Assembly: GCA_965243135.1 (NCBI GenBank)
Contig: OZ251539.1
Location: forward strand, 1,344,001 to 1,408,000
Direction: 5' to 3'
Origin: Alphaproteobacteria bacterium
GTDB lineage: Bacteria; Pseudomonadota; Alphaproteobacteria; MPNO01; UBA830
Length of the DNA stretch: 64,000 nt
In this document: in pieces, positions 35,696-54,223 of the stretch
How positions within the stretch are numbered: position 1 is the first letter of the stretch
Layout of the letters: each line of letters starts with the position of its first letter
Made by a program: the position numbers and the translations under genes
Notes under the pieces: generated by a model
What the model was told of the DNA's origin: nothing
Database searches by the model: none
Seen by the model: only the letters and a program-made list of their open reading frames with translations

Positions 35696-36365
35696 CGCCC
35701 GCTACCTGTCTGGCAGTGTGGAAAACGGGGGTTACGCTACCAGCGGCGTAAGCTGCCCGCTCCCGCGCTCCCGCCGAAATGTCCAGTTTCCCTTGGAAGA
35801 AGCCGTACTCCGGGCGCATGGCGGAACCGAAGCGTGGCGGCGACGATGCCGGCGCCCTGAATCCGGAAGGTGCGCTCGCCGCGGGAATGACGGGTGCCAG
35901 CCGCGCATTTCTGAAACTATGGCTTCGGCTTGCCGAGTCTCGAAGCCGTTTCGAGCAGGTTGAAGGCGGTAGTGACCATGGCGTATTCCACGAAGATACC
36001 ATAAGATGGCTTCCATCAAGTCATGCGGGTTCGCGGCAAAAGTCCTCCGGGTGCCGGTGGGGTTGCGCTGAATGCCTCGGACGGCGACCCGGTGGATCCC
36101 GCCGCGGGCGGCGGCGCAGAACGCTGCGGCTTTCTCCGCGGACACGCCGCAGAAATCGCGGATCGGTGCGTCCGGGCGGAACCGTTTCGCCTTCTCAACA
36201 GGATGGAGATCTGCTTGCGGTTCGTCGCCAAGGAGGAAGGCAACGGTGCAGGTTCGAGCAGGCGTTGTGCGCCGGCCAGCCGTTCTGGACCCACCCATAT
36301 TGACGGTGTTCATGGCGTCCCGTATTCTATATTCGTCCAGTGAAAATTCGAATGAAGACCGACGC

Positions 36366-37526
36366 ATGCGCCTTACTCGCCTCACGCTCAAGAATTGGCG
36401 CAATTTCAAAAAGGCCGATTTCAAGATCCAGGATCGTATGCTGATAATCGGTTCCAATGCTTCCGGCAAGTCGAATCTGCTCGATGCGCTCCTGTTCCTG
36501 AAACAAATTGCCTCTCCAGGAGGGGGATTCCAGAAAGCTGTCGAGAGCCGCGGAGGCATGTCGCGCGTTCGTTGTTTGGCGGCCAGAAGCTTCAATCACG
36601 GATGGGTGACAATGGCGATTGAAATTGGCGACGACAAATGCTCCAGTCGTTGGTCTTACGACTTGACGTTCACCGCAGAACGTCGGGGACTTCATCGACC
36701 AATCGTCAAAAGCGAGATCGTAAGGAAGAACGGCGAGGTGTTGCTCGAAAGGCCTACGGAAGAGGACGACAAAGATCCTGAACAAATGACTCAAACGGAT
36801 CTGGAGCAGGTGAAGGCCAACAAAGAGTTCCGAAATATCGTTGAATTTCTGAAGTCGATCCGCTATCTTCATCTTGTTCCGCACATTATTCGGGACCCGG
36901 AACGTAGCGGAGACCGGAATGACGATCCATACGGCGCGGACTTTTTGCTTAGAATCGCCAAGACTCCACAGAAAACTCGCAACCGTCATCTAAAAAAAAT
37001 TAACGAAGCTCTTAAAGCCGCCGTGCCGCAACTTGATCGCCTTGAACTCAAGCGGGACAAAATGGGAAGCTGGCATCTGGAAGCGCGCTACCAGCATTGG
37101 CGTCCGCAAGGCGCGTTGCAGAATGAACGGGATTTTTCGGACGGCACGCTCCGTTTGATCGGTCTGTTGTGGTCCCTGATAGAAGAAGGACGAGTCGGAG
37201 GGCCAGTGCTTCTGGAGGAGCCTGAGTTAACGCTGCACTCGTCCGTGGTATGCCAGATCCCTGCTATCCTCAGCCGGGTTCGCGCTAATGGCGGTCCCCA
37301 AGTGGTAGTTACCACGCATTCTAACGAAATATTGCACGATCAAGGCCTCGGAAAAGATGAAGTTGTCGTACTCATTCCGGGCGCGGACGGTACGGAAACT
37401 CAAGAAGCCGCGGGGATCCCGGATATTCAAGATCTTCTGGATTCAGGTTTGAGCATGGCAGAAATCCTCTTGCCGAAAACCCAGCCCGAAATGGTTCATG
37501 AATTGCCCCAAAGAATTACTCAATAG
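36366..37526 (+). CDS. ABC-type (AAA_21/AriA-like) ATPase
   Basis: MRLTRLTLKNWRNF, IGSNASGKSN, FSDGTLR signature, LLEEPE, VTTHS; 386 aa. Confidence 0.9.
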   Translation: MRLTRLTLKNWRNFKKADFKIQDRMLIIGSNASGKSNLLDALLFLKQIASPGGGFQKAVESRGGMSRVRCLAARSFNHGWVTMAIEIGDDKCSSRWSYDLTFTAERRGLHRPIVKSEIVRKNGEVLLERPTEEDDKDPEQMTQTDLEQVKANKEFRNIVEFLKSIRYLHLVPHIIRDPERSGDRNDDPYGADFLLRIAKTPQKTRNRHLKKINEALKAAVPQLDRLELKRDKMGSWHLEARYQHWRPQGALQNERDFSDGTLRLIGLLWSLIEEGRVGGPVLLEEPELTLHSSVVCQIPAILSRVRANGGPQVVVTTHSNEILHDQGLGKDEVVVLIPGADGTETQEAAGIPDIQDLLDSGLSMAEILLPKTQPEMVHELPQRITQ

Positions 37527-38119
37527 ATGACCCTTGTCAACTTGGTCGGCGAAGGCATTACGGATATTTCTGCGGCGATGAGCTTGGCAAAAATTGTTGC
37601 AACTGAAACGCGGCGCGGCAAGCTCCGTCGGAAGCAAATCCAAGATAGACGCCAAATTGCAAGAATTCAACCGTACAGGCGGACGCTTGAACTGGTTGAT
37701 TTTGCGAGATCTCGACTACGACGAGAAGCGCGCATCCCGGTTAATAAAGAGACTGATGGAAAATCGTTCGCCCGAGCATACGGATTCCTGTCAGAGCGAT
37801 GGAGAGTTGGCTGCTCGCGGATGTTGATGGCTTCGTCGAGGAGTTCTATGTGGATCGACGTCGTTTGCCAAAATATCCTGACGAATTGGATGATCCGAAA
37901 CAACGGGTTGTCGAAATCTGCAAATGGTCAAACCAGTCGAAGATTCGAAAGGCTATGGTGCCCCGGAACGGAAGCGGAAGAAAAGTTGGTCCAGAATTCG
38001 ATAACAGAATGTCTACTTTCGCAACAAACCAGTGGGATCCGCAACGGGCGGCGCAGCGGCCGCCAAGCCTTCAACGAACCCTCGCTGCGTTGAGAAAACT
38101 GGTCAAGGTTTGGACATAG
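37527..38119 (+). pseudogene. DUF4276-like (TOPRIM-related) protein, frameshifted
   Basis: LVGEGITD, WLILRDLD, MESWLLAD, PDELDDPK, WDPQRAAQRPPSLQR in three frames. Confidence 0.75.
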
Positions 38120-38843: not shown

Positions 38844-39130
38844 ATGCGCTACGAGTGCAATGAAAAGCACAAGCAACCTTGGCAACGGGGACGGCGCGGT
38901 TCGCTTTGTCCGAGGACCATGGACCCGGCGGCGGCTCAGGAATCGGACAGTGAACCGGTGGGCGACAAGCGCTATGCGGTCCATGAAGGCAGGGCGTATT
39001 GTGCGCAGGAGCGCGGCGCAGATGCTTGGCACGGCTGTCGGCTGGGCGGAGGTGCACGAAAGCCTGCGTCGTCGATGGCTGGCGGAAGGGCGCCTGCGGA
39101 GACGAGACATGAAGAAGCACTGGAATGATT
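38844..39130 (+). pseudogene. Small putative toxin/nuclease upstream of the IrrE-like gene, frameshifted
   Basis: MRYECNEKHKQPWQRGRRGSLCP...KRYAVHEGRAYCAQE...WHG, shift, VGWAEVHESLRRRW...KHWND. Confidence 0.55.
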
Positions 39131-39138
39131 AGCTTGCC

Positions 39139-40719
39139 ATGACGACTCGGTGGGAAAGGCTCGATGGCGACACGAGCGTGTTCGCGCTGAAGCTGTCATT
39201 CGCCTCCGATCCGGACGAAGGGCGGGGCATCGACCCCGAGACCGGCCTTTCTTGGGGGAGCTTCCAAATCTGGGTTCGGGACAGGAACCTGTGCGCCCAC
39301 TGGGAGGAAGGCGAGCGCATCGACTCGGTTCACTGGTATCTGCTGCCGCTGCTGGAGTGGTTTGCCCGCAACTGGGATGCCCTGCTTCACGAAGAGCGCC
39401 TGTCGGCGAAGAATGCGGGCGAGACCGCCTGGGAGTCGCTGCGGGCGACTTGTTTCCCGCCATCGGCCGACGACGAGGATAAGGCTTCCGCCTGGGAGGG
39501 CGCTTGGCATGGCTGGTGGTCCCGGCACGCCCTCCAGGCTGCAAGGGAAGGCGGATTGTTTCCCGACATCGTGCTCCGGCGCTTGCGGGACCGGGTAGAA
39601 GTCTCTTGGGGTTCCGTTCGCAGCGCGGGGATGCCGGGCCATTACCGATTCATGGAGTCGGACCGAGGCTCCGCTCTGCTGGAGCCGCAAGCGGTGGCTG
39701 GAGCGTTGCACGAGGTCCTGTCGCAGGCTGCGAGCTATCTGTCGTCGTCGATGCCGAATTCGAAGCGTATCGTGGCTTTGAACCGGAAGCTGCGAAATCT
39801 GAATGCGGGCGGAAAGGCCCGGAACGAAGCTCGCGAGCGACGGCTGGCATGGCTCGCCGGGCTGGGGACGACCAAGCACGGCATGCGGGCTGGGTGGCGC
39901 CGGGCGGTGGAAGGCCTGTTGCGTTCGGATCTGGCGGAGCGGCCGCGCCAGGCTCTGCTGGAAGCCGCGGAGACGCCGCTTGTCGTCACCGGTTCTTGCC
40001 ATGCCGCGCTTATGTTCGGTTCCCTCGCCCCCAACGTGACGGAGGCGGATGTCCAGGAGCTCGTTCGGGCGACGGTCGGCCTCTACGCCCCGGAGGGCGA
40101 GGCCGGGGCGATGAGCGGGATGTACCGCGCCGCGCCCATTGAGGACTCCGCCTCCCGCCCATGGAACCAGGGATACGAATTGGCGGAAAAGGTCCACGAG
40201 GATCTCGGTGGTGACTTCGAGAAGGGCGCTCTCGTCGATGTGAAAAGGCTGGTCGAGGCACTCGGCGTTCGCATCGAGCTACTGGACCTGTCGGACACGC
40301 ATGTGCGGGGTGTCTCCATCGCCGGCCCGCAGCACAGGCCTGGAATCTTCGTCAACGGGCGCCATGCCTCCAATGCCCATGAGGCCGGCCGCCGCTTCAC
40401 GCTTGCGCACGAGCTTTGCCACCTGTTGTTTGACCGGGAACAAGGGCGGCCGCTGGCCGTCGCCAGTGGACCCTGGGCGCCACGCGCCATCGAGCAACGC
40501 GCCAACGCTTTCGCAGCGATGCTGCTGATGCCTACGTCCCTGGTGAAGCGGACACTGGCGAGGTTGACGGTTGCGGTCGCCACGAAGGAAGGCGTGGACG
40601 AAGTGGCGGAACGCTTGGGCACCGGCCGCCTTGCCGTGCTCAATCACTTGGTGAATTTGGGCTTCATGGACGAGACGGACCAGCGACGACTGGAAGTCCA
40701 GTTGTCGTCCCTCGCGTGA
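39139..40719 (+). CDS. ImmA/IrrE-family metallopeptidase with a long N-terminal extension
   Basis: RRFTLAHELCHLLFD (HExxH), IEQRANAFAAMLLMP, C-terminal HTH-like HLVNLG; 526 aa. Confidence 0.88.
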   Translation: MTTRWERLDGDTSVFALKLSFASDPDEGRGIDPETGLSWGSFQIWVRDRNLCAHWEEGERIDSVHWYLLPLLEWFARNWDALLHEERLSAKNAGETAWESLRATCFPPSADDEDKASAWEGAWHGWWSRHALQAAREGGLFPDIVLRRLRDRVEVSWGSVRSAGMPGHYRFMESDRGSALLEPQAVAGALHEVLSQAASYLSSSMPNSKRIVALNRKLRNLNAGGKARNEARERRLAWLAGLGTTKHGMRAGWRRAVEGLLRSDLAERPRQALLEAAETPLVVTGSCHAALMFGSLAPNVTEADVQELVRATVGLYAPEGEAGAMSGMYRAAPIEDSASRPWNQGYELAEKVHEDLGGDFEKGALVDVKRLVEALGVRIELLDLSDTHVRGVSIAGPQHRPGIFVNGRHASNAHEAGRRFTLAHELCHLLFDREQGRPLAVASGPWAPRAIEQRANAFAAMLLMPTSLVKRTLARLTVAVATKEGVDEVAERLGTGRLAVLNHLVNLGFMDETDQRRLEVQLSSLA

Positions 40720-41342
40720 GGTGCGCCCGGCGATGGCGAAGAGCCGGGCCTTGGTACAGGGTCGTCCGTCTGAAGGAGGGGACAGCGACGCGCGCCCTCG
40801 AAGTCGCCGTTGCGCAAGGCGTCGGCAGACCTCCCGCGACAGCGTCCGGCGGTGGCCCCTCGCGGCGCGAATCATCCCGTCCCTGGAGAAATCGCGCCCG
40901 CAGTAGCGGCAAGGGTTGCCGCTCCATGGGGGAAAGGCCAGAAACGGAGACGCTCCTCGTCGGCGCCCCACGGCAGCCAGACAGCCGGGTCTTCAGGCGG
41001 CGGACGCCGGGCGCAGGCATTCAGCCATGGCGAGGCCATCGCGCCGAGGATAGAGCATGCCTGCCAACCGCGCTCCGTCTACGCTTTGCGGCGAGAGTTC
41101 CGGCTGAGGCCGCGCAAGCCGCGTTCGGCGGGGTTGTTGTCCACGGCCGCGTTGTCGACGAACACTGTCAGGCTGTCGCGGTGGCGCAGCAGGGAGTCCA
41201 GGCGTCTGCGTTGCGGTTTGCTTTCGGGAAGTTCGTTTCGCGCCTTCTTCGCTGTCGCGAAGAACGCTCGGGCGAACTTTGCGAACTGCTGTTGGGCGGC
41301 AGCGTTGCTCGGGCACGCCAGACGCCTGGCGTTGAGACGGTC
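40720..41342 (-). pseudogene. Internal fragment of a third, diverged IS66-DUF4338 element
   Basis: SLLRHRDSLTVFVDNAAVDNNPAERGLRG and CRYCGRDFS...TLSREVCRRL; no TIRs seen. Confidence 0.8.
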
Positions 41343-41403
41343 CCTTAATCAATTCCGAAGCGCGGCGGTCGGCAATCTCTCTCGCGAGGCAGTATGGGCT
41401 TCG

Positions 41404-41570
41404 CGGCGAGTTAAGCGTCTCACTTCCCTCGTCCCCCCGAAGGCCGCTGCGCGACGCTCTTCGCAGTCGCAGCGCGTTACCGGGATCTCCAAGCCGCCCA
41501 CGCCTTCCCGCGACGTTTCAGGCGCTTATCGGCCGGGTGCTGCGCGAGCAACGAACGCCGCCTCCGCGCC
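41404..41570 (+). repeat. Dispersed repeat R4, copy 2
   Basis: Aligns by eye with 22071-22225. Confidence 0.8.
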
Positions 41571-41579
41571 GCGCCTTTC

Positions 41580-41890
41580 CGGCGCCGGCAGAGCAAAGAC
41601 CCCGGCGAGCGCGGCAAGCGCGACCCACCAAAGTCCGTCTCGCGGTCAGAGACCCCCGAGCAAGATCCCTGCGCCCAGGGAATGGCCGCCGAGCGGCAGC
41701 CCGAGCGTGAGGCCCTTGACAGGTAATGCGCCGCGGCGATGTTGGCGATCACCGGGAAGACGGCGAAGTTGAGAACGCCGAAGAGGGCCGCGAAGACAAA
41801 CAGCACGGAGATGTCGGCTACGACGAACGGCAGCAAGACGAAGGCCACGGCGCGGCAGAAGAATATGCTCGCCAGCGGGCGCGGGCGATG
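41580..41890 (-). pseudogene. C-terminal fragment of an MFS transporter
   Basis: RPLASIFFCRAVAFVLLPFV...VFAALFGVLNFAVFPVIANIAAAHY, shift, GGHSLGAG. Confidence 0.6.
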
Positions 41891-42125
41891 GAACGGAAAA
41901 CCGAGAATTTTCCGCGTCGAGAACGTCGTTTTCGCACACCCCAAGCCGCTCCGAGACCGCAGACGATCGCCCGCGTTCGGACCCCCCAAGTTTGCCGCGC
42001 GGCATCAGGGCGACCGGATATTCCGTTTTCATTTCGCATTCGCCAGCCTGTGCAACCCTTGGGGCCGGCCGACGGCCGGCCGGGCGGTCCGCGGGAGCGC
42101 CGAGCTAACGACAAAAAAATAACGC
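41890..42125 (+). repeat. Dispersed repeat R2; second copy at ~55562-55805
   Basis: GACCGCA.ACGATCGCCC.CGT...CCCCAAGTTTGCCG...CAGGGC.ACCGGATATTCCG.TTTC...TTCGCCAGC...CCCTTGGG. Confidence 0.8.
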
Positions 42126-42143
42126 AAACGCCCTCAAGGTACA

Positions 42144-42172
42144 TTGACTCGCCGACGATCCCGGACTATCGT
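42144..42172 (+). promoter_or_regulatory. Sigma70-like promoter of the NYN-NACHT operon
   Basis: TTGACT (42144-42149), 17 bp, TATCGT (42167-42172). Confidence 0.45.
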
Positions 42173-42305
42173 AATAATTGAGGTTGCTACCCTCCTGTGG
42201 CAAATGTAGAGATGGATGGATGATGACTGAATCTTTCTGCGTCTGAATTTCGCGGCTAGAACTTGCTGGAATCGTAAGGTTAAACTACAGCTTTTGGATC
42301 GCTAT

Positions 42306-42965
42306 ATGCCTGCAAGACCGCTGACCCCACCTAGGCGCGTCGATGCTCTGGTTGATTGGAACAGCCAATTTCATATGGTCCAGAACCGGTCACTTCCCCC
42401 GCATTCAGCGTCACTGTCTCGGCTTGTTCTCAAATACCTCTGCCGAAACGTAAGCGAATGTCTGGTCAAGGCCGAGCCAGGCGGCAGGTTTGAAGTGCAC
42501 CTCCGAGCATATCACGGCTGGCATAACGGCTTCCAGCCAACACCACGGAGAAGGGCCGCTATTGATGCACAGTCTGGCGACCCAAACGATCCGAACGACC
42601 AAGGCCTGTTAGGCTACTCGCCTCGACGAGAGGTGATTTTTCGTTCGTTTGCGTTCGGCGACAAGCTTCTTTTTGCGCTTGATAAACGTTTACATGTTGG
42701 ACTGGATTGCCATCTGCCGGGAACCCTTCAGCGGATTCGCGACGATTACGAAGAAAAGATGGTTGATACGGCACTTGCAAGTGACCTTGTCTATCTTGCG
42801 CTCTCGGATACGAATAGCTGGCTTATGGTTGTCGGGCAGGATCGCGATCTGGTGCCCGCACTCTACGTTGCCGAGGCGGCGGTCGACGGAACGGAACGCC
42901 GCGTGTTTTTTCTCGCCCGCGATAGCATAAGTCTACTCAAGCTGGATGGGTTACAATATCCATGA
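42306..42965 (+). CDS. NYN/LabA-like PIN-fold ribonuclease
   Basis: ALVDWNSQ, LRAYHGW, EEKMVDTALASDL, VVGQDRDLVP acidic catalytic pattern; alternative TTG start at 42294. Confidence 0.78.
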   Translation: MPARPLTPPRRVDALVDWNSQFHMVQNRSLPPHSASLSRLVLKYLCRNVSECLVKAEPGGRFEVHLRAYHGWHNGFQPTPRRRAAIDAQSGDPNDPNDQGLLGYSPRREVIFRSFAFGDKLLFALDKRLHVGLDCHLPGTLQRIRDDYEEKMVDTALASDLVYLALSDTNSWLMVVGQDRDLVPALYVAEAAVDGTERRVFFLARDSISLLKLDGLQYP

Positions 42966-45160
42966 ACGCTCCTGTTCCCCTGATCCGTAGTGACCTCGTG
43001 CCTTTTGCGGATTTCGGCACGGAAGTGCCGGAACCGCGGGTGACCGAATCCGAACGTAGATTCACTCTCACCCGTAACGGAACCGAGTGGACAATTACGG
43101 TCGGATCGGATCAGCGCATCACGCTGTCCGGACCCGTTGACCAGAGGCAGTCCTTTCCGTCCGCGGCAGCGATGTTCGCCGGACCTGCGTTTGGAGATCT
43201 TGATCGCTGGTCGCGGCATCAGGCTTATGTCTCCATGAAGTCGGCTAGCTCCGCTGAACCGATTCCGATGATGGGAACTTTGCGAACAGCCGAGAGCGGG
43301 ACAACGGACTCGGATGCGTTAGATCTTGACGTCGAAAAATTAGATGCGTTCCTGACGGCGCATCGATCCAGCATGACGACCGATACATCCCTCATCCTAG
43401 TCGTTGACGGACCGGCCGGAAGCGGAAAAACAACTCTCATCGAGGATCTGACACTCCGCCGCGCCAATGCATGGCAGAGCTATTTGAAGCCTTTGGTTCT
43501 TCATGTAGAGAGCCGTGGACGTGTGTTACAGAATCTGCGAGACTTATTGGCGTTTAGCTTGCAAACGTTGCGTGTGACGGTCACCTACGATCAGGTCGTG
43601 CCGCTGGTGCGGCACGGCCTTGTCATGCTGGCGATAGATGGCTTCGACGAGCTAGCTGACCCGACCGGTTACCAGACGGCTTGGTCGCAACTCAACGAAT
43701 TGATAATCCATACGCGAGGTCGGGCAACCTTGATAATGGCAGGACGAGAATCTTTCATTTCGCGCCCCCGGGTGGAGAGGGCGTTGCCGGCGTATAGGCG
43801 GAAAGACGATCGGATGCCATTGTTTACCATTGACGAGGTACGTCCTCATGAGGCGAAGAAATGGCTTCAAGGCCTTGGATGGACGGACGCGGCCTTCTCG
43901 TTACCGGCTGTGGAACCTATATTTGAACCAGGTTCATATGCGTTGCGACCGGTTTTCCTCTCACAGTTCCATCACCTGAAGGACGAGCTTCAAGAACGGA
44001 ACGAGATTGTTTCAGATCTGCTATCCTTTCTTGTTGAGCGGATGCTGGATCGGGAGTCGAGCAAGTTTACCGAGGCTGTTGAGGGAAACGAATTGCCGCG
44101 GATCCGAAGCTTTTTGAAGCGTCTGTTGCAGGAGATCGCGCGCGATTTGGCCGAGAATCAAGTTAACGCTATTCCAAACGAGAGTTTACGCTGGATCGCT
44201 GAGTTTGTCGCATCCGGGGTTTTCCCTTCTGATTTTGTCGACCTCCTTGTTAACCGAGCTGAAAGCGTTGCCTTTTTGATGCCTGACGCGCGCTTCGAAC
44301 ACACGCGTTTTAGTCATGAGCAAATTTCGATCCATTTTCTCGCTCAGGAAAGCCTGCGAGCGATTGCCGATGGCGAAGTGCCGAAGTATGTTCGGCGTAA
44401 CATTTTCGGTCGAGAGGTCTTGGATGGATTTGCGCGAGCTGTAGAATCGCTAGATGCTCTCAAGGCTAATGAATTCGTTACGGCTTGCAAAAAACAGTTT
44501 ACCGTGTTCGGAAATGCGGACAGGTCGAAGCGGAATCTAGCGGCGTTGGCTATAGTCGTTTCTTGCATGGTGGAGATCCCGTCAGAAGAACCGCTGCGTT
44601 TTGACAATGTCGACTTGGGCGAAATTCTGATACCGGCGGATGCTGCGCCAATCGTTTTTTCCAAAGTTGTCATCGGGACGCTCTATGCAAGGAATGTAGA
44701 TCTGACGTCCATTGTCTGGGACAATGTAGGAATCGTTACGCTTTTTTCGAACGAATTTACTGTGTACGGAGACGGTATTCCGTTGCCTGCCGTAGTGGAG
44801 CTGCCTGGAAGGACATTGCGAAATCGTCAAGAGATCGAAGAATGCCTATACCCGGTAACGTCCTCTATGAGCGCAGAGGGATCGACTGCGTCGGTGGAAG
44901 ATGTTGATCTTCTTAAACGGATCGACCGATACCGTCACTTCTGGTTGCGTGAAGCTCGGGATACTACAGATCGATCCGCCCGCAAGATCATCAGTGATCC
45001 AAACTGGGCAAGGGTTCGTCAAATTTTGCTGGAAAAACAGCTTATGATAGAGCGCACCGTTGCAGCTTCCGGTCCCCACGATAAGTTTATACACTTTCGC
45101 AACTCCATAAATAAGTTCGCTGATAATTATGAGTTGATTTCCGCTCTTCAAAATGGATGA
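42962..45160 (+). CDS. NACHT/STAND-class NTPase
   Basis: ILVVDGPAGSGKTT Walker A, MLAIDGFDEL Walker B, LIMAGRESF sensor, RPVFL, RFSHEQI winged-helix motif; ATGA overlap; 732 aa intact. Confidence 0.85.
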   Translation: MNAPVPLIRSDLVPFADFGTEVPEPRVTESERRFTLTRNGTEWTITVGSDQRITLSGPVDQRQSFPSAAAMFAGPAFGDLDRWSRHQAYVSMKSASSAEPIPMMGTLRTAESGTTDSDALDLDVEKLDAFLTAHRSSMTTDTSLILVVDGPAGSGKTTLIEDLTLRRANAWQSYLKPLVLHVESRGRVLQNLRDLLAFSLQTLRVTVTYDQVVPLVRHGLVMLAIDGFDELADPTGYQTAWSQLNELIIHTRGRATLIMAGRESFISRPRVERALPAYRRKDDRMPLFTIDEVRPHEAKKWLQGLGWTDAAFSLPAVEPIFEPGSYALRPVFLSQFHHLKDELQERNEIVSDLLSFLVERMLDRESSKFTEAVEGNELPRIRSFLKRLLQEIARDLAENQVNAIPNESLRWIAEFVASGVFPSDFVDLLVNRAESVAFLMPDARFEHTRFSHEQISIHFLAQESLRAIADGEVPKYVRRNIFGREVLDGFARAVESLDALKANEFVTACKKQFTVFGNADRSKRNLAALAIVVSCMVEIPSEEPLRFDNVDLGEILIPADAAPIVFSKVVIGTLYARNVDLTSIVWDNVGIVTLFSNEFTVYGDGIPLPAVVELPGRTLRNRQEIEECLYPVTSSMSAEGSTASVEDVDLLKRIDRYRHFWLREARDTTDRSARKIISDPNWARVRQILLEKQLMIERTVAASGPHDKFIHFRNSINKFADNYELISALQNG

Positions 45161-45209
45161 TGCAAGTATAGAATGTGCCGGGTACAGATCTATTTTTGCA
45201 AAATTTTGT

Positions 45210-45316
45210 CGTGTAACTAACCCCGAGCTGCCGGACGTCCGAAACCGTTCCGCAACCGATGATATTTTCGCGGCGGTGCTCACTGTTTGAGAATTCGGGA
45301 ATGGGACGCTGAGGAC
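45210..45316 (+). repeat. Dispersed repeat R1, partial copy
   Basis: GTGTAACTAACCCCGAGCTGCCGG...AAACCGTTCCGC...GAGAATTCGGGA..GGACGCTGAGG. Confidence 0.8.
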
Positions 45317-45374
45317 GCTGAGGTCTGCTTCGTGGTGCAAGTCTGACGTAAGCGTTCGGTCGTGGGGTGACGGT

Positions 45375-46173
45375 CTATTTGTTGAGGCTCCTCTTCCAGT
45401 CCCGCCGCAGGGGCTTCAGCGTCCTTGACCGGGAGAGCGCGTTCTTTCCGGGTCTTGCCCCGGCCCTGTGTTTTGCCGACCTTGCTGGCGGCCCGGTAGC
45501 AGCTTCCTTCGAAGCGCGGCGCCTCGCAGAAGGTCTCGAGCAGGACCGGAGCGTAGCGGTGCTCCCAGTCGTCCGGCAACCGTCGTTCGACCAGAGCGAG
45601 GGGACGCGAGGTTTTTTATCCGAACCCAGGGCAGGAACCGGGCATTGTTGACCGCCAGCGGTGCGGCGGCGGGTCTCGGGGTTCCACGAGCTTGTCCCGG
45701 GGCGCGATCTTCCAGGCCGCGGCGCCGAAGCCGAGGACGGCGAGGGGTTCGCCGCCAGCGGCCCGGACGAAGTATCGCATTTGCGCGCCGGGCAGCGTGG
45801 AGTAGCCAAGATAATGGTAGCGAGCGACGAACTCGTTCCAGAGGCGGCCTTCGCCTGCGTTCCGGACAGGCTCCGCGGCGACGGGCTGGACATCGGCGAG
45901 ACGTTCGGGGACCGGGAACAGGGGCCTGTCGGTCGCGGGGCCGGGCACGGGCGTACGGTCGGCGTTTGCCTCGGCGGCGGCAGGACGATCACGCCGTGCA
46001 TGCGCAACATGGCCACCCGCGCGCTCATATCCTTTAGGCCGCCGTCGGGCTTGCGCCAGTCGAGGCGCCGGCAGACCTCCCGCGGCAGCGCCCCGCGGCT
46101 GAGGCTGCACCTCAGGGAGCGGCTCGTCCTCGGAGAAGTCGCGCCCGCAGTAGCGGCAAGGGCCGCCGCTCAC
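45375..46173 (-). pseudogene. DUF4338 protein, frameshifted
   Basis: WNEFVARYHYLGYSTLPGAQMRYFV, PDDWEHRYAPVLLETFCE. Confidence 0.82.
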
Positions 46174-47692
46174 GGTCCCTGGGGGAGAGGCCAGGAGCGG
46201 AGGCGCTCCTCGCCTGCGCCCCATGGTAGCCAGTCAGCAGGGCCTTCGGGCGGTGGACGACGGGCGCAAGCATAATCAAGCAGCCAGCTGTACGGCGAGA
46301 TGCCGGCCATCGTGCCGAAGATGGACATGCCCGCCAACCGCGCTCCGTCCACGCTTTGCGACCCGAACGAAAGTTTCCGGCTGAGGCCGCGCAAGCCGCG
46401 TTCGGCGGGGTTGTTGTCCATGGGAACGGCCGCGTTGTCCACGAAGGTTGTCAGGCCGTCGCGGTGGCGCAGCAGGGAGTCCAGAGGGCCGCGTTGCGCC
46501 GCGCTCTCCGGGAGCGCGTCCCGCGCCTTTTTCGCCGCCGCGAAGAACGCTTCGGCGAACCTCGCGAGCCGCCGCTGGGCGGCGGCGTTGCCCGGGCTCG
46601 CCAGACGTCTGGCGTTGAGACGGTACAATGCGTGACGAAGCCACTTTTGGGCGAACCGCGCGAGGTTCGGGTAGCCGGTCTCGAGGTTGACGAAGTCGCG
46701 CCTGGCATGGACCCAGCAATATGAAAGGACGATGCACCCCTCCATGACGCGCGCCAGCAGGCGGAGTAGCGGTCGCAGACCAAGTAAGCCGCCTGTCCGG
46801 GCGAGCCGAGCCCCCTGAACAACTCAAGGGCGGCTTCCGCGCTGCGTGACGGCAACGATGCGGACCGCGTCCGTCGCCCGGGCGGCCCAGGCGCGAGCGT
46901 TGCCTCCGTCCTCCTCGTCCAACTCCCGTCCACCCCGTTTCGTCGCCGTGAACGACCGGCGCCTCCGACAGGCGCCGTGAGATCTCTTCGTCGAGCGGTC
47001 AGGCGCAGGAACCGTCGCTGGGCGTCCGCCAACGTGCCGGGGGCGAGCCCGTGCTGGCTTAGCGCGCGGCAGACCGAACGCAGCGGACGATGCAGGCCGT
47101 ACCTCTCCGCCAGGACGTTCGCCCAGACGGAGACTCCGTACCGGGTAAACAGCCTCGCCGGGGCCGGGCCGACGACCTCCTTTTCCGGTCGGCAGGTACA
47201 GGCCGGGCGCAGCCGCTTCCGTCGAATCCTCCTGACATAGGTGACGGTCCTGGTTTCGACGAGCTCCGTGTCCTTCCAACCGTTCGAGACCCAGGCCTTG
47301 CCGCAGTCCGGGCACGTGCGCTCGTCCGGAATCGACTCTTCCTCGCGAACGGGCAGTTCGGGGCGCTGCGTGCGACCATGCGACGGCGTTCCCTGGCGGC
47401 GCCCCCGGCGTCGACCGGTTGCCGTAGGCCGCCGCTCGCTGCGGCGCCCGAACAACTCCCGGGCAAACCTGCGGCTGCGGGACTTCAGACTCTCGTTCTC
47501 CGGCGTTTCCGCAGTTCGACACGGGGGCGGCACCTCATGTCTCTTTATCTCGGCGTCGCAGCAACACTTCTCCGCTTTCTGGACCGCGGTCTCCAGCTCC
47601 CGGCCGAGATCCGCACTCTCCCGGCGCGCCGCGGGCAGCTCCTGGCCGCCGCCCGACAACTCGGTCCCCGGAAGTGAATGTTCGCTCGACAT
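46170..47692 (-). pseudogene. tnpC: IS66 transposase TnpC, frameshifted
   Basis: Paralogue of 11156-12987 with a single coiled-coil unit. Confidence 0.9.
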
Positions 47693-48530: not shown

Positions 48531-48862
48531 CGAGAGTGTTCATGGCTGACGCTTGCTTCTCGGGCTGCAAGCGTTGGCCTGCGACGGACATTCGACCTGT
48601 GACGCACGGCCACTGGCCTTGACCGGCTCCCATTCGACGAGCTTGACGCTCCGGACGGGTTTTTCGGTGCCGGTTTTGCCACCATGCTTGCACCGTGCGA
48701 GGTTTCCAGGAGTGCGCTGAAGGTGGCTCCGTGTCTCTTCCGGGCGCGCCCGGATGCCTTGAACTTCCGCGGGCTCGGCGTCCCGCACGGCTGATAGGCT
48801 GCCCTGTTTCGGAGCGGTGTCCCGTGCGTGCGATCGGGCGCGGCAGGCGTTATAGTTCACCC

Positions 48863-50461
48863 ATGCGCCGTTTCAATACAGAGGGGCCGGTGCGCCCGGA
48901 CAAGCACTACGCCATCCAGCCGCTGGAGCGGATGGGCTTGGAGAAACTGCTGGACCTGATTCGGACCCGGAACTACTTCGTGCTGCACGCGCCGCGCCAG
49001 ACGGGCAAGACCTCCGCCCTGATCGCCCTGCGCGACCTGCTCAACAGCGGCGAAGCCGGCAATTTCCGTTGCGTGGACGTGAACGTCGAATCCGCCCAAG
49101 TGGCGCGGGACGACACCGCGCGCGGCATCCGCGCCATTCTGGGCAGCCTGGCCACGAGCGCGCGTCTGCTGGGCGACGACTACCCGGACGGCGTCTGGCC
49201 GGACATTCTGGCGAAGGCGGGGCCGGATAGCGCGCTGAACGAGCTGCTCTCCCGCTGGTGCGCGGCGAACCCGACGCCGCTGGTGCTGCTGGTGGACGAG
49301 ATCGACTCGCTGGTCGGCGACACCCTGCTCTCGGTGCTGCGCCAGCTCCGCGCCGGCTACGAACATCGTCCCGAGGGCTTTCCGCAGAGCGTCGTGCTGT
49401 GCGGGTTGCGCGATGTCCGCGACTACCGCATCCGGTCGACCGTCGGCGAAGTCGTCGCCGGCGGCAGCCCGTTCAATGTCGCGGCGAAGCCGGTTCGCCT
49501 GGGCGACTTCACCGAGGCGGAGACGCGCGCGCTGATGGCGCAGCACACGGAGGAGACCGGCCAGCGCTTTTCGGAGGCGGCGCAGGAAGCGGTGTGGACG
49601 CAGACGCGAGGCCAGCCGTGGCTGGTGAATGCGCTGTGCGCGGAGGCATGCTTCGACAACAAGGCGGGGCGGGACCGCTCGCGGACGATCGAACCGGACG
49701 ACGTCTACGCGGCGCGGGAGGAGCTGATCCTGTCGCGGCGCACGCATCTTGACCAGCTGCTGCACAAGCTTGAGGAGGAGGAGCGGGTGCGGCGCGTCGT
49801 CGAGCCCATCCTGGCCGGCGGCCTGCCGCAGTACGATGCCGACGACTTGGGGTACGCGCGCGACCTGGGCCTGCTCGCGCCGGACTCGCCCCCGCGCATG
49901 GCGAACCCGATCTATGCGGAGATGGTGCCGCGCGAACTGGGCTATATCCTGCAAAGCAGCCTGGACATGCAGTTGGCTTGGTACGTGGACGGGCGGCTGG
50001 ACATGACGAAGCTGCTGACGGCGTTCCGCGCGTTCTTCGGCGAGCACGCGGAGCATTGGCTGGAGCGCTTCAGCGAGTATCCGGAGGCTGGCCCGCAACT
50101 CATCCTGCAGGCGTACCTGCAGCGGGTGGTGAACGGCGGCGGGCGGATGGAGCGGGAGTACGGCCTCGGGCGGGGGCGGACGGACCTTCTGGTGCTGTGG
50201 CCGCGGGAGGCGGGTCAGCCGTCGGATCTGTGGGAGCGTTTCGTGGTCGAGTGCAAGGTGCTGCGGGACTCGGACCGCAAGAGCTTGGAGCGGACCGTCG
50301 AGCAAGGGGTGGAGCGGACGCTGGGCTACATGGCGAAGTGCGGGGCGGACGAAGGGCATCTGGTGGTGATCGACCGCCGGGCCGCCGCGGAAGAGCGCCG
50401 GAGCGGCGAGGCGGGCGGGGACCGGCAGGACGAGCGCGGGGTGACGGTCTGGGCGCTGTAG
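48863..50461 (+). CDS. AAA-family ATPase with C-terminal PD-(D/E)xK-like nuclease
   Basis: MRRFNTEGPV, LHAPRQTGKTS, LLVDEIDSL, TRGQPWLVNAL, EREYGLGRGRTDL...FVVECK; 532 aa. Confidence 0.9.
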   Translation: MRRFNTEGPVRPDKHYAIQPLERMGLEKLLDLIRTRNYFVLHAPRQTGKTSALIALRDLLNSGEAGNFRCVDVNVESAQVARDDTARGIRAILGSLATSARLLGDDYPDGVWPDILAKAGPDSALNELLSRWCAANPTPLVLLVDEIDSLVGDTLLSVLRQLRAGYEHRPEGFPQSVVLCGLRDVRDYRIRSTVGEVVAGGSPFNVAAKPVRLGDFTEAETRALMAQHTEETGQRFSEAAQEAVWTQTRGQPWLVNALCAEACFDNKAGRDRSRTIEPDDVYAAREELILSRRTHLDQLLHKLEEEERVRRVVEPILAGGLPQYDADDLGYARDLGLLAPDSPPRMANPIYAEMVPRELGYILQSSLDMQLAWYVDGRLDMTKLLTAFRAFFGEHAEHWLERFSEYPEAGPQLILQAYLQRVVNGGGRMEREYGLGRGRTDLLVLWPREAGQPSDLWERFVVECKVLRDSDRKSLERTVEQGVERTLGYMAKCGADEGHLVVIDRRAAAEERRSGEAGGDRQDERGVTVWAL

Positions 50462-50717: not shown

Positions 50718-51289
50718 GTGAGCGTTCGCTACCCGGGGGACGAAAAAATTTGTCTGGGGACCGGACACGGGGTTTTTAATCCTTGCGCCTTCATTGGCGA
50801 TACCAGATTTTCGCTTCGAAATGACTGACAGACGGGGTTGCTGGCAACGACCCTCCGGCACCGGGATGAGGCGGACCTTCCACCTCCTCGGGCGAAAAAT
50901 CCCCTAAGTCCGGAGCGGAGGTCTTGTTTGAAGCCATGGCTGGCGAGTAACCGAATCGGCTTGCGAAAGCTAAAGAAAGACGCAGCGCGGCGAAGAAAAA
51001 GCGGAATCATGCCGCAGCCCTAACGCGGGATCGCCTTGGCCCGCCCCGGTATCTTGACTCGCTGGCCAACCTACCCCGATAATGCCCCTGCGACAGGGGT
51101 TGCCGACCGCCTGCCGTGCACTTCATTATGGACGCCCGACGAAAGCGTTTTTTCATGGAAAGCTCGGTGCATGTGGTCAAGTGCATTCGTGTCTCTCAGC
51201 GACTTCGGTGGCCGCGGACAGCGATACGCGGGCCGGATCCAAGTTGCGTGCTCGAAGTACGCAAGAAGTGCCGCTTTAGCGGTTCTATG

Positions 51290-51700
51290 ACCATTTGCCC
51301 TTACTCTCCCTCCATCCTTGTCCCCGACGTCCAGCGCAAGCGTTGCCTGACCCTAGGAAACCCTTCTGTCGAAAGTCGGCACGGTCGCCGGCGCTCGGTA
51401 GGACTCCTCCTTCTTCGTCGGTGGCGCTCAGGCGCATGCCGTTGGCCAGAGCCGCCGCCGCCAGCTTCGGAGGCTTGGTCGCAAGCGCCAGCCACGAGCC
51501 CGCGCCGCGTCGTTTCGCCAACCGAACGACCGGCATGTCGCCGATGCTTTGTCACGCCGCCCCGTGGCCGAGCCTCGCCTTGCCGCCCGTGTTGTCTTCT
51601 CTCGGCATCAGACCCAGCCAAACCGCGGAGTCGGGCCCCAACCGGAAATTTGGCGGTGCGAAGGCTGCCGAAGCGGTCATGGGACCGGCGTCGAGCATGC
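51290..51700 (-). pseudogene. 3' fragment of an IS110-family transposase
   Basis: SAVWLGLMPREDNTGGKARLG and KPPKLAAAALAN motifs. Confidence 0.7.
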
Positions 51701-51719
51701 TTCGTATCAAGTTCTCGTC

Positions 51720-51829
51720 CTCCCTTTATGGGGGACGGGACCACCGTTAGAGTAGCATTAGGCCGTGGCTCTCATGGCGTTGAACTGAATAAAGAATTCT
51801 GTCAATATAATGTTGATGAAGGACTCTAG
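51720..51829 (+). pseudogene. C-terminal remnant of an amino (N4C/N6A) DNA methyltransferase
   Basis: PFMGDGTTVRVALGRGSHGVELNKEFC resembles DPFMGSGTT..A..LGR..GxEL; stop abuts the ATPase ATG. Confidence 0.6.
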
Positions 51830-53140
51830 ATGTATTTTTCAGCGGAACAGATAAAGAGAGCGATAATCCAACTAAAGGATGTTCACCCTTTTTTTGGTAT
51901 AACTTTTCTTGCCTGTAAAAAAGAAAATTTGCCGATTGGAAAGCCGATTAAATTTCATTTAGGAAGAATAACTAAAGAGCACATGGAAAAACATCACAAA
52001 TTAAATCAAAATTCCAAACACTATTTTCAGCCATTTCATAGAACAAGAAGATGGGTTAGAAATGATTATCCATCCAGCGGGTTACAAGAGATCAATACGC
52101 AAACCTTCAAAGACGCCTTTATTCATCCGCCCAAAAGGCCGCAATGGGGATGGTCCGACGATTACATCAGCTTCTTGAATAAATTTCTTTCTCGCAATAT
52201 GGGGGAAAACAAAATTCCAGCTTACGCCTTGGCTGTCTGGTTATATAAGGAGCAAGAAGTATCGGACGCCACCGCGATGGAATTGATTTCAAAATTCATG
52301 GAAGAATATAACATTATCGAAGAAGAGACCCATTTTTTTAATCAACAGGCAACGGTATCGGACGGTGGCCCCACCGAAGCGCATGTTGCTGTCTGGCGCG
52401 ATCTTCGTCCATTCGTCGGCCGTCCTCCGGATGCGTCGCCCATAAGAGGCGGCCCGCTCGGGCATCTTCATATTAGAGGGAGTGGGCCAGCGCCAGAGCT
52501 TCGTATGGAGCCTTCCGAACACATGACGATCATTACGGGGGACAATGGCCTGGGAAAGACGTTTCTGCTCGATTGCGCTTGGTGGGCGCTAACCGGTACA
52601 TGGGCGGACCAGCCTGCCACGCCCCGGGATGACAGCGCCAAAAGGAATGTTTTGATTTCTTTCGGAATTCGGGACCAAGAACTAATGGAGGCGGGCGAAG
52701 CTTTCACGCAAGAAGTATCCTATAATTGGGATTTGCAAGAGTGGTCGAAGGCCGACAGGACAGCTACCGTACCCGGGCTGATCTTGTATGTACGCGTGGA
52801 CGGTTCCTTTGCGATATGGGATCCGATTCGACGCGCGGAAGCGCAAAATGGGGCGGAAAATCAAACCGCCCTTTCAAGTAAGGAAATATGGTATGGTAAA
52901 GAAGGAAAAACGGAAGGCCTGATTAGGGATTGGGCACAATGGCAGAGTAATCCAAAGACTTCGCCGTTTTCGATTTTTTCAAAAATCTTGAAAGCACTAT
53001 CGCCGCCGGATCTTGGTGAGCTGTCACCAGGAAAGCTTGTTCGTTTGCCTCGCGAATTGCGACCTATTCCGACTATCCGGCATAACTATGGCGAAATTCC
53101 GATTGTAAGCGCATCAGCCGGCGTGAAGAGGATAGTCACG

Positions 53141-54223
53141 CTAGTGTTCTGTCCCAGAAATACGCATAGATAATCTTTGAACCTTTTCGAGAATGGATTC
53201 GGCGGTGGCAATCCAAACGAAGGGAGCGGCATCGCGATTGTAGTCCTCGGTGAACTGCTTGATGCATTTCACCAATTGGCTGACGTTTGCGAACGATCCC
53301 CGGCGAAGGGCGGTCTCCGTGATGAGGCCAAACCAGCGCTCGACCTGATTGAGCCAGGAAGCGTAGGTCGGCGTGAAGTGGAGATGGTAGCGAGGTCGCT
53401 GCGCTATCCAGGCGCGAACCTTGGGATGCTTATGGGTCGCGTAGTTGTCGGCCACCAAATGGATGTCGAGTTCTTTGGGGACGTTGCGGTCGATGAGGCG
53501 CAGAAAATCGAGGAAATCCTGGTGGCGATGACGTTGCTTGCAGGTGGCGATGACCTGCCCGGTGGCAATGTCGAGCGCGGCGAACAACGTGGTGGTGCCG
53601 TGGCGGATGTAGTCATGGGTGTAGCCCTCGACATAGCCAAGCCCGAGGGGCAGGGTCGGCTGGGTACGGTCGAGGGCCTGAATCTGCGATTTCTCGTCGA
53701 CGCACAGCACCACCGCGTGTTCCGGAGGGTTGAGGTACAATCCAACGATGTCGCGCACTTTCTCCACGAAGAACGGGTCTGTCGACAGCTTGAACGTCTT
53801 GCGCAGGTGGGGCTTGACGCCGAACAACTCGAACCAGCGCTGGACGGTGCTCTTCGAGAGGCCGGCATGGCGGGCCATTGAACGAACGCTCCAGTGCGTC
53901 GCATTCTTCGGCGTTTCCTGAAGGGCGCTCTTGATGACCTCGGCAACCCGTTCGTCATCGTATGTTCGGGGCCGGCCGCTGCGCAACTCGTCGTGTAGCC
54001 CTTCGGTCCCGCCTTCCACAAACCGCTTTCGCCATTTGCCTACGGTCAACGGCGATACGTCGAGCTTTTCGGCGACCGCCTTGTTCGACATTCCCGCAGC
54101 GCAATCCAGAACGATCTTGGCGCGTAGAGTCAAACCGGAAGGCAGCGACGTTGCATTCGCAATGCTGCGCAATTGCGCTTCCTGATCCAAAGTGAGAACG
54201 AGCGGCGGCTTTCCTTTCGGCAT
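53141..54223 (-). CDS. IS630 transposase, intact
   Basis: [50 protein letters not shown]. Confidence 0.96.

Follow-up and report, generated by a model that had tools for sequence, protein, structure and literature searches.

Bacterial proteins that resemble the NLR receptors (those with a nucleotide-binding domain plus leucine-rich repeats) serve as a model for how switches of the STAND class (signal transduction ATPases that have numerous domains) turn pathogen sensing into cell-level responses. In nearly all of those that have been characterised the effector is a fused domain. The locus described here raises the question of whether a receptor of this type can instead work with an effector encoded by a gene of its own. 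It lies in a stretch of 64,000 nt (contig OZ251539.1, positions 1,344,001–1,408,000, assembly GCA_965243135.1), referred to below as the window, and consists of two overlapping genes, one for a predicted nuclease of the NYN fold (gene 1) and one for a NACHT NTPase (gene 2). A first-pass annotation, made from the sequence alone, had singled out this pair as a candidate defence system.

Layout and composition of the locus

Gene 1 (42294..42965, forward strand) encodes a divergent NYN-fold (LabA/MARF1-like, PIN-like) predicted metal-dependent nuclease. Translation from the TTG at 42294 gives a product of 223 aa and translation from the ATG at 42307 one of 219 aa. The ATG is likely to be the real start because the closest homologues (80–84% identity) are 219 aa long. 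Gene 2 (42962..45160, forward strand, ATG start) encodes a 732-aa STAND NTPase of the NACHT clade. The stop codon of gene 1 and the start codon of gene 2 share the sequence ATGA at 42962–42965, and the overlap reported in the first-pass annotation is thus seen in the two open reading frames (ORFs). Both genes are full length when compared with the ranges of their families (approximately 213–229 aa and 724–766 aa, respectively). They had been described as intact genes amid decayed neighbours, and the first half of this description was correct, while decay was recorded for some of the neighbours, namely the PtuA, DruA and IS66 fragments described below.

The GC content of the cassette was 0.496–0.570 across the 500-nt bins from 42000 to 45499, compared with 0.646–0.672 in the bins from 39000 to 41999 and 0.692–0.702 in those from 45500 to 47499. 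The pair thus has a lower GC content than the host genes around it (0.646–0.702 in the flanking bins), as had been noted. Terminator-like sites were not enriched (six, versus 4.3 ± 2.4 in shuffled sequences), and Rfam searches at gathering thresholds together with ARAGORN found no RNA family, tRNA or tmRNA in the 64-kb window.

Gene 1 encodes a divergent NYN-fold protein

The product of gene 1 had no match in Pfam at E≤0.1 and none in NCBIfam. The only PADLOC model that it reached was HEC-09 (E 5.5e-5, 20.9 bits), and the match was not full length, with residues 148–198 aligned to positions 97–147 of the 203 in the profile. Of 776 candidates for the gene 1 family, 112 clusters reached E≤0.001. 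Their lengths are about 205–280 aa, and one cluster bears the JGI name 'LabA/DUF88 family protein'. When family members were scanned singly, 33 of 52 matched the Pfam NYN family PF01936 at E≤1 (best E 5.2e-5). In the 52-member alignment, D21, W22, R71, Y73, G75, W76, G122, K155-M-V-D158-T159, D164, D183, D185 and P188 were invariant, and the conserved motif was E154-K-M-V-D-T. The four aspartates D158, D164, D183 and D185 were also invariant among 57 NYN sequences that are paired with a NACHT gene, with D21 conserved in at least 90% of them.

An AlphaFold2 model of the protein (pLDDT 94.4, pTM 0.90; predicted local distance difference test and predicted template modelling scores, respectively) was compared with 48,161 chains of the PDB using VIA-align. 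Only two chains reached Z≥8 and both are NYN domains, those of mouse MARF1 (5yaa_A, Z 10.7, root-mean-square deviation (rmsd) 3.3, 140 of 150 residues aligned) and VPA0982 (2qip_A, Z 9.7, rmsd 4.8, 150 of 162 residues aligned). FEN/PIN-like 5' nucleases followed at a Z of about 7. At the sequence level, the best match of the family profile to PDB sequences was at E 0.32, and a search of PDB sequences with the products of both genes found at best an adiponectin chain (E 0.0045), in which no stretch passed, and a P-loop protein (E 0.34). An hhalign comparison with 12 canonical NYN proteins of related genomes was weak and confined to the C-terminal half (E 0.077, printed probability 0.73). In this alignment VDTALASD fell on mDiELAiD and GQDRD on sGDgD, which puts D158/D164 and D183/D185 at the canonical acidic positions. 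The family differs in having an insertion at about residues 75–113 and invariant residues of its own (W22, R71, Y73, G75, W76 and H140-L-P).

From the alignments and the predicted structure we conclude that gene 1 encodes a predicted nuclease of a distinct, divergent NYN-fold family with a complete acidic set. It is set apart from PF01936 because it scores below the Pfam cut-off. The NYN/PIN fold and acidic residues proposed in the first-pass annotation are in keeping with this, as two NYN domains were the sole chains at Z≥8 and D21, D158, D164, D183 and D185 are conserved.

Gene 2 encodes a NACHT NTPase

The product of gene 2 matched the Pfam NACHT family (PF05729) with 28.8 bits, above the cut-off of 26.7 bits (E 1.3e-6, residues 146–247). 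A homologue search, in which 8,000 candidates were scored and the best 120 clusters were listed, put at least 349 clusters at E≤0.001. The listed homologues were nearly all 724–758 aa in length with 96–100% query coverage, the exceptions being P0120 (495 aa, 64%) and P0160 (658 aa, 86%). Several of those listed bear the NCBI name 'NACHT domain-containing protein', and most have a precomputed PF05729 assignment.

The Walker A P-loop GPAGSGKT (residues 150–157; 43409..43432, forward strand) was conserved, with G150, A152, G153, G155 and K156 invariant both in a set of 42 sequences and in the 57 paired sequences. The Walker B strand (43622..43651, forward strand) carries D226-G-F-D-E230, and all five of these residues were invariant in the same two sets. 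They fit the signature D[GAS]hDE, which according to the preprint of Kibby et al. (10.1101/2022.07.19.500537) distinguishes NACHT proteins from other STANDs. Further invariant residues were S184-R-G-R187, G261-R262, N399, Q400 and F450, and H452 was conserved in at least 90% of sequences. We take G261-R262 and the F450-x-H452 region to be the NLR sensor arginine and winged-helix histidine, respectively.

A structure model of the protein (pLDDT 83.1) gave 215 Foldseek matches at E≤0.001, led by NOD2 (E 1e-12) and followed by NLRP14, NLRC4, NLRP3 and NAIP. With VIA-align, the highest scores were for NLRP3 (Z 15.0, 350 residues aligned, rmsd 10.2) and the NACHT region of NLRP3 (8zem, Z 14.2, 232 residues aligned, rmsd 3.5), with NLRP9 (13.8), NOD2 (13.2), NAIP5 (13.0, 429 residues aligned) and NLRC4 (12.4) next. 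The residues of gene 2 included in these NLR alignments ran from about 70 up to 592 in the longest, though with the whole model as the query only residues ~79–466 are well tested by VIA-align, which is silent on the folds of the N- and C-terminal parts. The order of nucleotide-binding, helical and winged-helix domains found in solved NLRs was also present in the model. Other matches were limited to the P-loop, both in NCBIfam (Avs2, 9.9 bits versus a cut-off of 1000) and in PADLOC, where the best was again Avs2 (E 0.0021, residues 115–170). Judged by its sequence and predicted fold, the product of gene 2 is a genuine NACHT NTPase whose Walker A, Walker B and sensor motifs are intact. The 732-aa NACHT protein of the first-pass annotation was therefore correctly identified, with a Pfam score above cut-off, invariant GPAGSGKT and D-G-F-D-E residues and animal NLRs as the top fold matches.

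The terminal regions of the NACHT protein

The N-terminal region preceding the NACHT module had been put at about 130 aa, with no enzyme motif. The part specific to the family is shorter, from residue 1 to ~75 (42962..43186, forward strand), because the structural matches to NLRs start at residues ~70–79; the rest of that description held, as there was no Pfam family and no catalytic motif. This domain includes the motif PFADxGT, with F15, D17 and G19 invariant, and has strands at residues 31–65 in the model. When residues 1–125 of 57 family members were made into a profile and run against 1.84 billion proteins, 173 representatives matched at E≤0.001. Among the best 150 of the 173, the domain was at the N-terminus of proteins of 710–770 aa, or of shorter pieces, with four exceptions. 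These were P0326 (5,348 aa, with internal repeated stretches), P0322 (389 aa, residues 145–236), P0240 (residues 51–169) and P0335 (residues 45–155), and we take the offsets in the last two to be differences in the called start. By this sequence search, the N-terminal domain is all but confined to the gene 2 family.

Beyond the winged-helix region, residues ~541–620 (44582..44821, forward strand) form a beta-rich repeat region that is a candidate sensor surface. The model shows strand pairs at intervals of about 20 residues (545–548/551–556, 564–567/570–575, 584–587/590–595 and 611–619), and the beta-rich C-terminal stretch of the first-pass annotation corresponds to these. A pentapeptide-repeat beta-helix was considered for residues 541–620 on the basis of periodicity alone and was set aside as unsupported, because a Pfam search at E≤10 with four separate pieces of the NACHT protein, the N-terminal domain included, gave nothing meaningful. 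The beta region is followed by a helix-strand module at residues ~645–712 (44894..45097, forward strand), with helices at 645–656, 671–677 and 682–691 and strands at 662–664, 695–700 and 707–712, an order that resembles a winged helix in the model. Neither Pfam nor the ESM Atlas provided a family for the C-terminal beta region or for the helix-strand module; in the latter resource the best scores, 0.82 for residues 1–137 and 0.79 for residues 536–732, were at chance level.

The two genes are kept together

The gene 1 profile was run against a single genome for each species and recovered 74 loci. A NACHT homologue was found by tblastn directly downstream and on the same strand in 72 of these, so the homologues do keep the gene pair. 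The two loci with no NACHT match were L037, which is a contig of only 1.5 kb, and L074, where the match to gene 1 was a partial one of 40 residues. In the 57 loci with both genes full length, the genes overlapped in 48, by 4 nt in 32 of them, and no gap exceeded 23 nt. Pairwise distances between NYN proteins were correlated with those between NACHT proteins (r=0.94 over the 57 pairs and r=0.93 in the major subfamily), and this was reached in none of 999 permutations. The correlation points to co-inheritance and not to interaction, since linked genes with a shared history give the same result.

A search for fused NYN-NACHT proteins found none among 3,533 longer gene 1 candidates at E≤0.001, which is weak evidence. 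The ORFs nearest to the pair in the 72 loci (235 in all, 111 upstream and 124 downstream) were surveyed as raw tallies with no background set. They represented 86 Pfam families on the upstream side and 79 on the downstream side, none of which occurred more than five times, and a conserved third gene was not found.

In five loci (L064, L068, L070, L073 and L049), the NYN gene was truncated, interrupted or carried a stop codon and the NACHT frame was open (741–745 aa). The interruption was a gap of 1.6 kb in L070 and an in-frame stop in L049. Broken copies of gene 1 were located near positions 8001–8700 of the locus, or near 150–1100 in L069 and L073. In L069 the NYN gene was truncated and the NACHT match began at query residue 70 behind a gap of 404 nt, and this locus may be damaged in both genes. 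The reverse configuration, in which the NYN gene is intact and the NACHT gene broken, was not found in any locus inside a contig. The broken NYN copies could represent decay of a toxic effector or errors in metagenome-assembled genomes (MAGs). Sequencing errors are plausible because, for most of these loci, the record title describes a single-chromosome MAG assembly.

The pair is horizontally mobile

The host genome (6.1 Mb, in one contig) includes a second NYN and NACHT pair with 28–31% identity to the pair in the window. The second pair (locus L076, 1411..4289, reverse strand, corresponding to genome positions ~3368506–3371384) consists of ORFs of 212 aa and 747 aa with a 4-nt overlap. It forms an islet with a GC content of 0.43–0.48 that extends over just the two genes, with flanks at 0.65. 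One pair of each subfamily was also found in OZ241843.1 (L040 and L058), OY282382.1 (L055 and L059) and OY282378.1 (L032 and L068).

At E≤1e-20, the NACHT family was present in none of 60 relatives of the host (four from its genus, 21 from its family and 35 from its order). By record title, the hosts include Alpha-, Beta- and Gammaproteobacteria, Vicinamibacteria, Acidobacteriaceae and 'Spirochaetia' MAGs. Neighbours of the pair in the 72 loci include genes typical of mobile elements (integrase, NikA, TrwB, RepA, IS200, resolvase and one phage portal). In the window, remnants related to the insertion sequence IS66 bracket the NYN-NACHT cassette. Direct repeats of three families (D1–D3) are found to its left at 40878..41341 (40878–40924, 41098–41146 and 41143–41341) and to its right at 46125..46624 (46125–46171, 46375–46423 and 46426–46624), with 82–98% identity between the two sides. 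The right copy overlaps a fragment of an IS66-family transposase gene (46170–46745, reverse strand; DDE_Tnp_IS66, E 1.5e-16, profile positions 148–283 of 284).

The low-GC islands, the absence from 60 relatives and the spread over several phyla show that the pair moves horizontally as one unit between distant bacteria. That the NYN-fold nuclease and the NACHT NTPase form an obligate mobile pair we regard as close to certain.

Predicted complex and proposed mechanism

The structure of a complex was predicted from both chains at full length, each with an alignment of 57 sequences paired row by row. The NYN-NACHT complex scored 0.64 (0.66, 0.56 and 0.64 in separate runs) versus 0.33 for the best control. 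Of 80 solved complexes 58 attained that mark, as did two of 110 mismatched pairs. The runs shared at least 75% of contacts, and the pLDDT of the partner was at least 83. The predicted dock for the NYN protein is in the winged-helix region of the NACHT protein at residues 399–447 (44156..44302, forward strand), after the invariant A-R-D-x-A-E-N-Q helix and before F450-x-H452. On the NACHT side, the modelled interface consists of residues 399, 405, 407–408, 411, 414–415, 417–423, 426, 444–447, 475 and 519, and on the NYN side of residues 5–13, 65, 67, 103–118, 129 and 173. The NYN contacts coincide with, or slightly precede, the N-terminal ends of strands 14–21, 66–73, 114–121 and 176–180, and the acidic residues are at the opposite, C-terminal ends of these strands. 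In the model the NYN protein therefore docks by its back face, which would leave the acidic pocket open.

The first-pass annotation had suggested that the STAND sensor recruits a separate RNase or holds it inactive. Recruitment is in line with the conserved gene pair and the complex score, although the predicted dock is on the winged helix and not on the N-terminus. Inactivation by occlusion is without support, because the face of the NYN protein in contact with its partner is opposite the acidic pocket. Coupling through a shared terminal (amyloid-type) motif was also considered and was rejected, as local alignments of the termini scored on average 14.7 in cognate pairs (57), 14.5 in non-cognate pairs and 14.7 in shuffled sequences.

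In the mechanism that we propose, the NACHT protein would be both sensor and switch. A cue from an invader would be recognised by the N-terminal domain and/or by the C-terminal module of beta repeats and winged-helix-like fold, and nucleotide exchange and oligomerisation would come next, as they do in other NLRs. The NYN protein would act as an effector in trans that is constitutively seated on the NACHT winged-helix domain with its active site facing away. On activation the winged-helix domain would rotate, as in NLRs, and the NYN protein would become active by clustering or repositioning rather than by release from occlusion. It would then cut cellular and/or phage RNA (RNA rather than DNA is presumed), and growth would stop. 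The full picture, a widespread bacterial NLR immune system in which receptor and executioner are separate and pre-assembled, with a NYN RNase seated on the NACHT winged helix and fired by a conformational change or oligomerisation, is one that we put forward tentatively, at somewhat short of even chances.

Evidence for and against a role in defence

We lean, with some reserve, towards the reading that the pair is a self-contained, horizontally mobile two-gene immune system of NLR-like type with the NYN protein as its effector, most likely acting against phage by abortive infection. The case for defence is made by membership of the NACHT family, by horizontal transfer and patchy distribution and by the island in the window itself, and not by a demonstrated enrichment of defence genes around the family. 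Bacterial NACHT proteins are described in the preprint of Kibby et al. (10.1101/2022.07.19.500537) as protecting against phage, normally with fused effectors that include RNases. Location in a defence island, which the first-pass annotation had raised, applies to the window, where HEC-01A, PtuA, DruA and CapP/RmrA-like genes are nearby, but the neighbours at the other loci are mostly housekeeping genes.

A number of results weigh against this reading. The Pfam tallies of the 235 neighbouring ORFs were led by ABC transporters and housekeeping families, the latter including PEP carboxylase, adenylosuccinate synthetase, aldehyde dehydrogenases and aconitase. With PADLOC at E≤1e-10, the same ORFs yielded only two type II methylases, one type I restriction enzyme, one PDC-S36, one DrmMI and two SNF2-type helicases, apart from five 'mad3' matches that are taken up below. 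In tblastn searches with the NACHT protein there were no matches in 72,556 plasmids (E≤1e-20) or in 50,697 phages (E≤1e-10). The product of gene 1 scored 13 bits against PF01936, for which the cut-off is 24.2 bits (E 0.15), and Foldseek found no match to its model at E≤0.001, with the LabA-like 2qip at rank 43 (E 0.053). For the complex, the calibration of the score is only rough because our own alignments were supplied. The control score of 0.33 was obtained with the NYN protein kept and the NACHT protein replaced, and hence the NYN protein is somewhat 'sticky' in the model. HEC-09, the defence candidate whose profile gene 1 partly matches, is reported to have given no protection against any phage in the tests (preprint 10.1101/2024.01.29.577857). 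Finally, the sigma70-like promoter that had been credited to the pair did not hold up. The candidate site (TTGACT, a 17-nt spacer and TATCGT; 42144..42172, forward strand) matches at 9 of 12 positions, and region 41800–45600 contains three such sites versus 2.0 ± 1.3 in shuffles, a chance level that leaves the site with no value as promoter evidence.

The housekeeping neighbours elsewhere and the lack of plasmid and phage copies would also suit a regulatory or stress RNA-processing module, in which the NACHT protein would sense an endogenous signal and direct the NYN protein to particular cellular RNAs. Canonical LabA-type NYN genes are indeed housekeeping genes, present in 12 of the 13 related genomes searched. 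However, a module of this kind is hard to reconcile with a family that is in none of 60 relatives yet extends across several phyla, and with the low-GC islets formed by both copies in the host genome. The coexistence of two divergent pairs there, and likewise in at least three further records, fits diversifying conflict genes, and the window copy is amid defence genes. We consider this alternative unlikely.

The broken NYN genes bear on a further alternative, a selfish cassette of the toxin-antitoxin type with the NYN protein as toxin and the NACHT protein as its restrainer, kept by post-segregational killing and not by phage sensing. We give it a small chance only. A 732-aa sensor-type STAND with conserved extra domains far exceeds the needs of an antitoxin, and plasmid copies were not found. 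The finding that the NYN gene is broken with the NACHT frame open in five loci, and never the reverse inside a contig, would fit a toxic NYN protein, as the tight translational coupling and the transfer of the pair as a unit would fit addiction; yet frameshift errors are plausible given that most broken copies are in single-chromosome MAG records. Addiction also overlaps with abortive infection as an explanation and is compatible with it.

It is very doubtful that the NYN protein is an upstream sensor or co-factor, which for example binds or trims an RNA cue, with the NACHT N-terminal domain or a host factor as executioner, since the N-terminal domain, though conserved (F15, D17, G19), N-terminal in all but four of the 150 proteins listed, at the effector position of most NLR-like proteins as these are described and not the site where the complex model places the NYN protein, is small with no catalytic motif or known fold, whereas the NYN protein keeps its full catalytic set across 57 pairs and RNase domains are described as an established effector type on bacterial NACHT proteins.

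Comparison with known systems

No model of a named NLR system in PADLOC v2.0.0 or NCBIfam matched the pair, which agrees with the first-pass view that it is not a named system. A bacterial NYN-NACHT pair was not described in the literature searched, though the supplementary tables of Kibby et al. and of a 2026 survey of STANDs may list the clade. That survey (10.64898/2026.01.04.697583) calls clades defence-associated by their fused effector domains or by neighbourhood, and the words NYN, PIN, operon and two-gene are absent from its main text. What would be new here is an NLR-like system in which a separate, directly docked NYN nuclease is the predicted effector.

The immune system that we favour shares with the bNACHT proteins (10.1101/2022.07.19.500537) a central NACHT module with Walker A and D[GAS]hDE motifs, the logic of sensor, switch and effector, and the presence of RNases among the types of effector. 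The bNACHT proteins carry an N-terminally fused effector (the RNases that the preprint lists include Schlafen and HEPN, and NYN is absent from this list), whereas here a separate NYN protein is encoded in a strongly conserved, overlapping operon. The Avs/AVAST proteins are likewise STAND NTPases; they have their sensors at the C-terminus, and they oligomerise and set nucleases or other effectors free (10.64898/2026.01.04.697583). Their effectors are fused, the match of gene 2 to Avs2 is in the P-loop only, and the sensor of gene 2 is short and of a different type.

There are also STAND or NLR systems with separate effectors, such as those with effector-associated or Death-like domains, the CARD-NLR-gasdermin systems and the NLR-amyloid pairs, and these are similar in that an effector encoded by a neighbouring gene is recruited by the NTPase. 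Their coupling relies on homotypic adaptor domains or on short motifs common to both partners. The NYN-NACHT pair differs from them in having no shared terminal motif, and direct docking of the enzyme on the winged helix is predicted instead.

Among nucleases, HEC-09 (10.1101/2024.01.29.577857) resembles gene 1 in its MARF1-like NYN domain and three conserved aspartates and was proposed as an RNase-based defence candidate. It is described as a one-gene candidate that lies within Hma systems and has a helix-turn-helix-like part at the N-terminus of its product, with no NACHT partner. The NYN domains of MARF1 and LabA (VPA0982) are the best structural matches to gene 1 and have acidic residues similarly placed in EKxVD...D and D-x-D motifs. 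Their identity to gene 1 is, however, only 9–13%, and gene 1 is below the Pfam cut-off, with an insertion and invariant residues of its own.

If the favoured reading is correct, NYN RNases would join the effector repertoire of NLR-type immunity, and defence catalogues would gain a family with at least 72 loci from species genomes in several phyla and an N-terminal domain represented by about 173 clusters at 50% identity. Direct docking would be an alternative to the known solutions of adaptor domain or fusion, and two diverged receptor-RNase pairs in one genome would provide parallel specificities. An effector in trans would also allow binding, activation and catalysis to be separated genetically and biochemically. 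Surveys that name STAND clades as defence on the basis of fused effector domains, as the 2026 survey is described as doing, would tend to miss families of this kind.

Neighbouring genes

Genes related to known defence genes lie on both sides of the cassette in the window. An ABC-type ATPase of 484 aa (36072–37526, forward strand) is a full-length HEC-01A (PADLOC E 5.3e-152; Pfam AAA_21/AAA_15). HEC-01 is described by Payne et al. (preprint 10.1101/2024.01.29.577857) as the combination of an ATPase and a TOPRIM protein, which was not protective when tested. An ORF of 188 aa with no family match directly abuts the ATPase gene (joint span 36072–38093, forward strand). A protein of 526 aa (39139–40719, forward strand) has a C-terminal M78/IrrE peptidase domain (Pfam E 2.3e-14) and matches CapP (E 1.5e-16) and RmrA (to E 6e-13), with about 350 aa at its N-terminus that have no family assignment. 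To the right, a fragment of Druantia DruA (45616–46224, reverse strand; Pfam PF14236, E 8e-11, profile positions 53–119 of 297) adjoins the IS66 fragment, and a Septu PtuA homologue at 51830–53173 (forward strand; E 3.8e-148, profile positions 1–445 of 627) is probably truncated. The ORF before it (51116–51829) had no family match.

At the other loci, five PADLOC 'mad3' matches were found among the 111 upstream ORFs, and five of these ORFs also match ABC_membrane and ABC_tran. The 'mad3' matches are probably the five ABC transporters, and our guess is that these are the same-strand ORFs of 613–650 aa in L030 (5786–7627), L036 (6121–7962), L053 (6048–8000), L063 (6004–7920) and L065 (6040–7956). 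The position of ABC transporters just upstream of the pair probably reflects synteny among relatives and not a third component.

Two further proteins in the window were recorded. A 588-aa ATPase (48695–50461, forward strand) matched AAA_22 (E 4.9e-7) and AAA_35 (E 1.9e-5) and no PADLOC model, and may be another orphan NTPase of the island. An 801-aa protein encoded at 14334–16739 (forward strand) had weak PADLOC matches to the STALD region of ThsA (E 1.1e-7) and to LmuA (E 2.2e-6).

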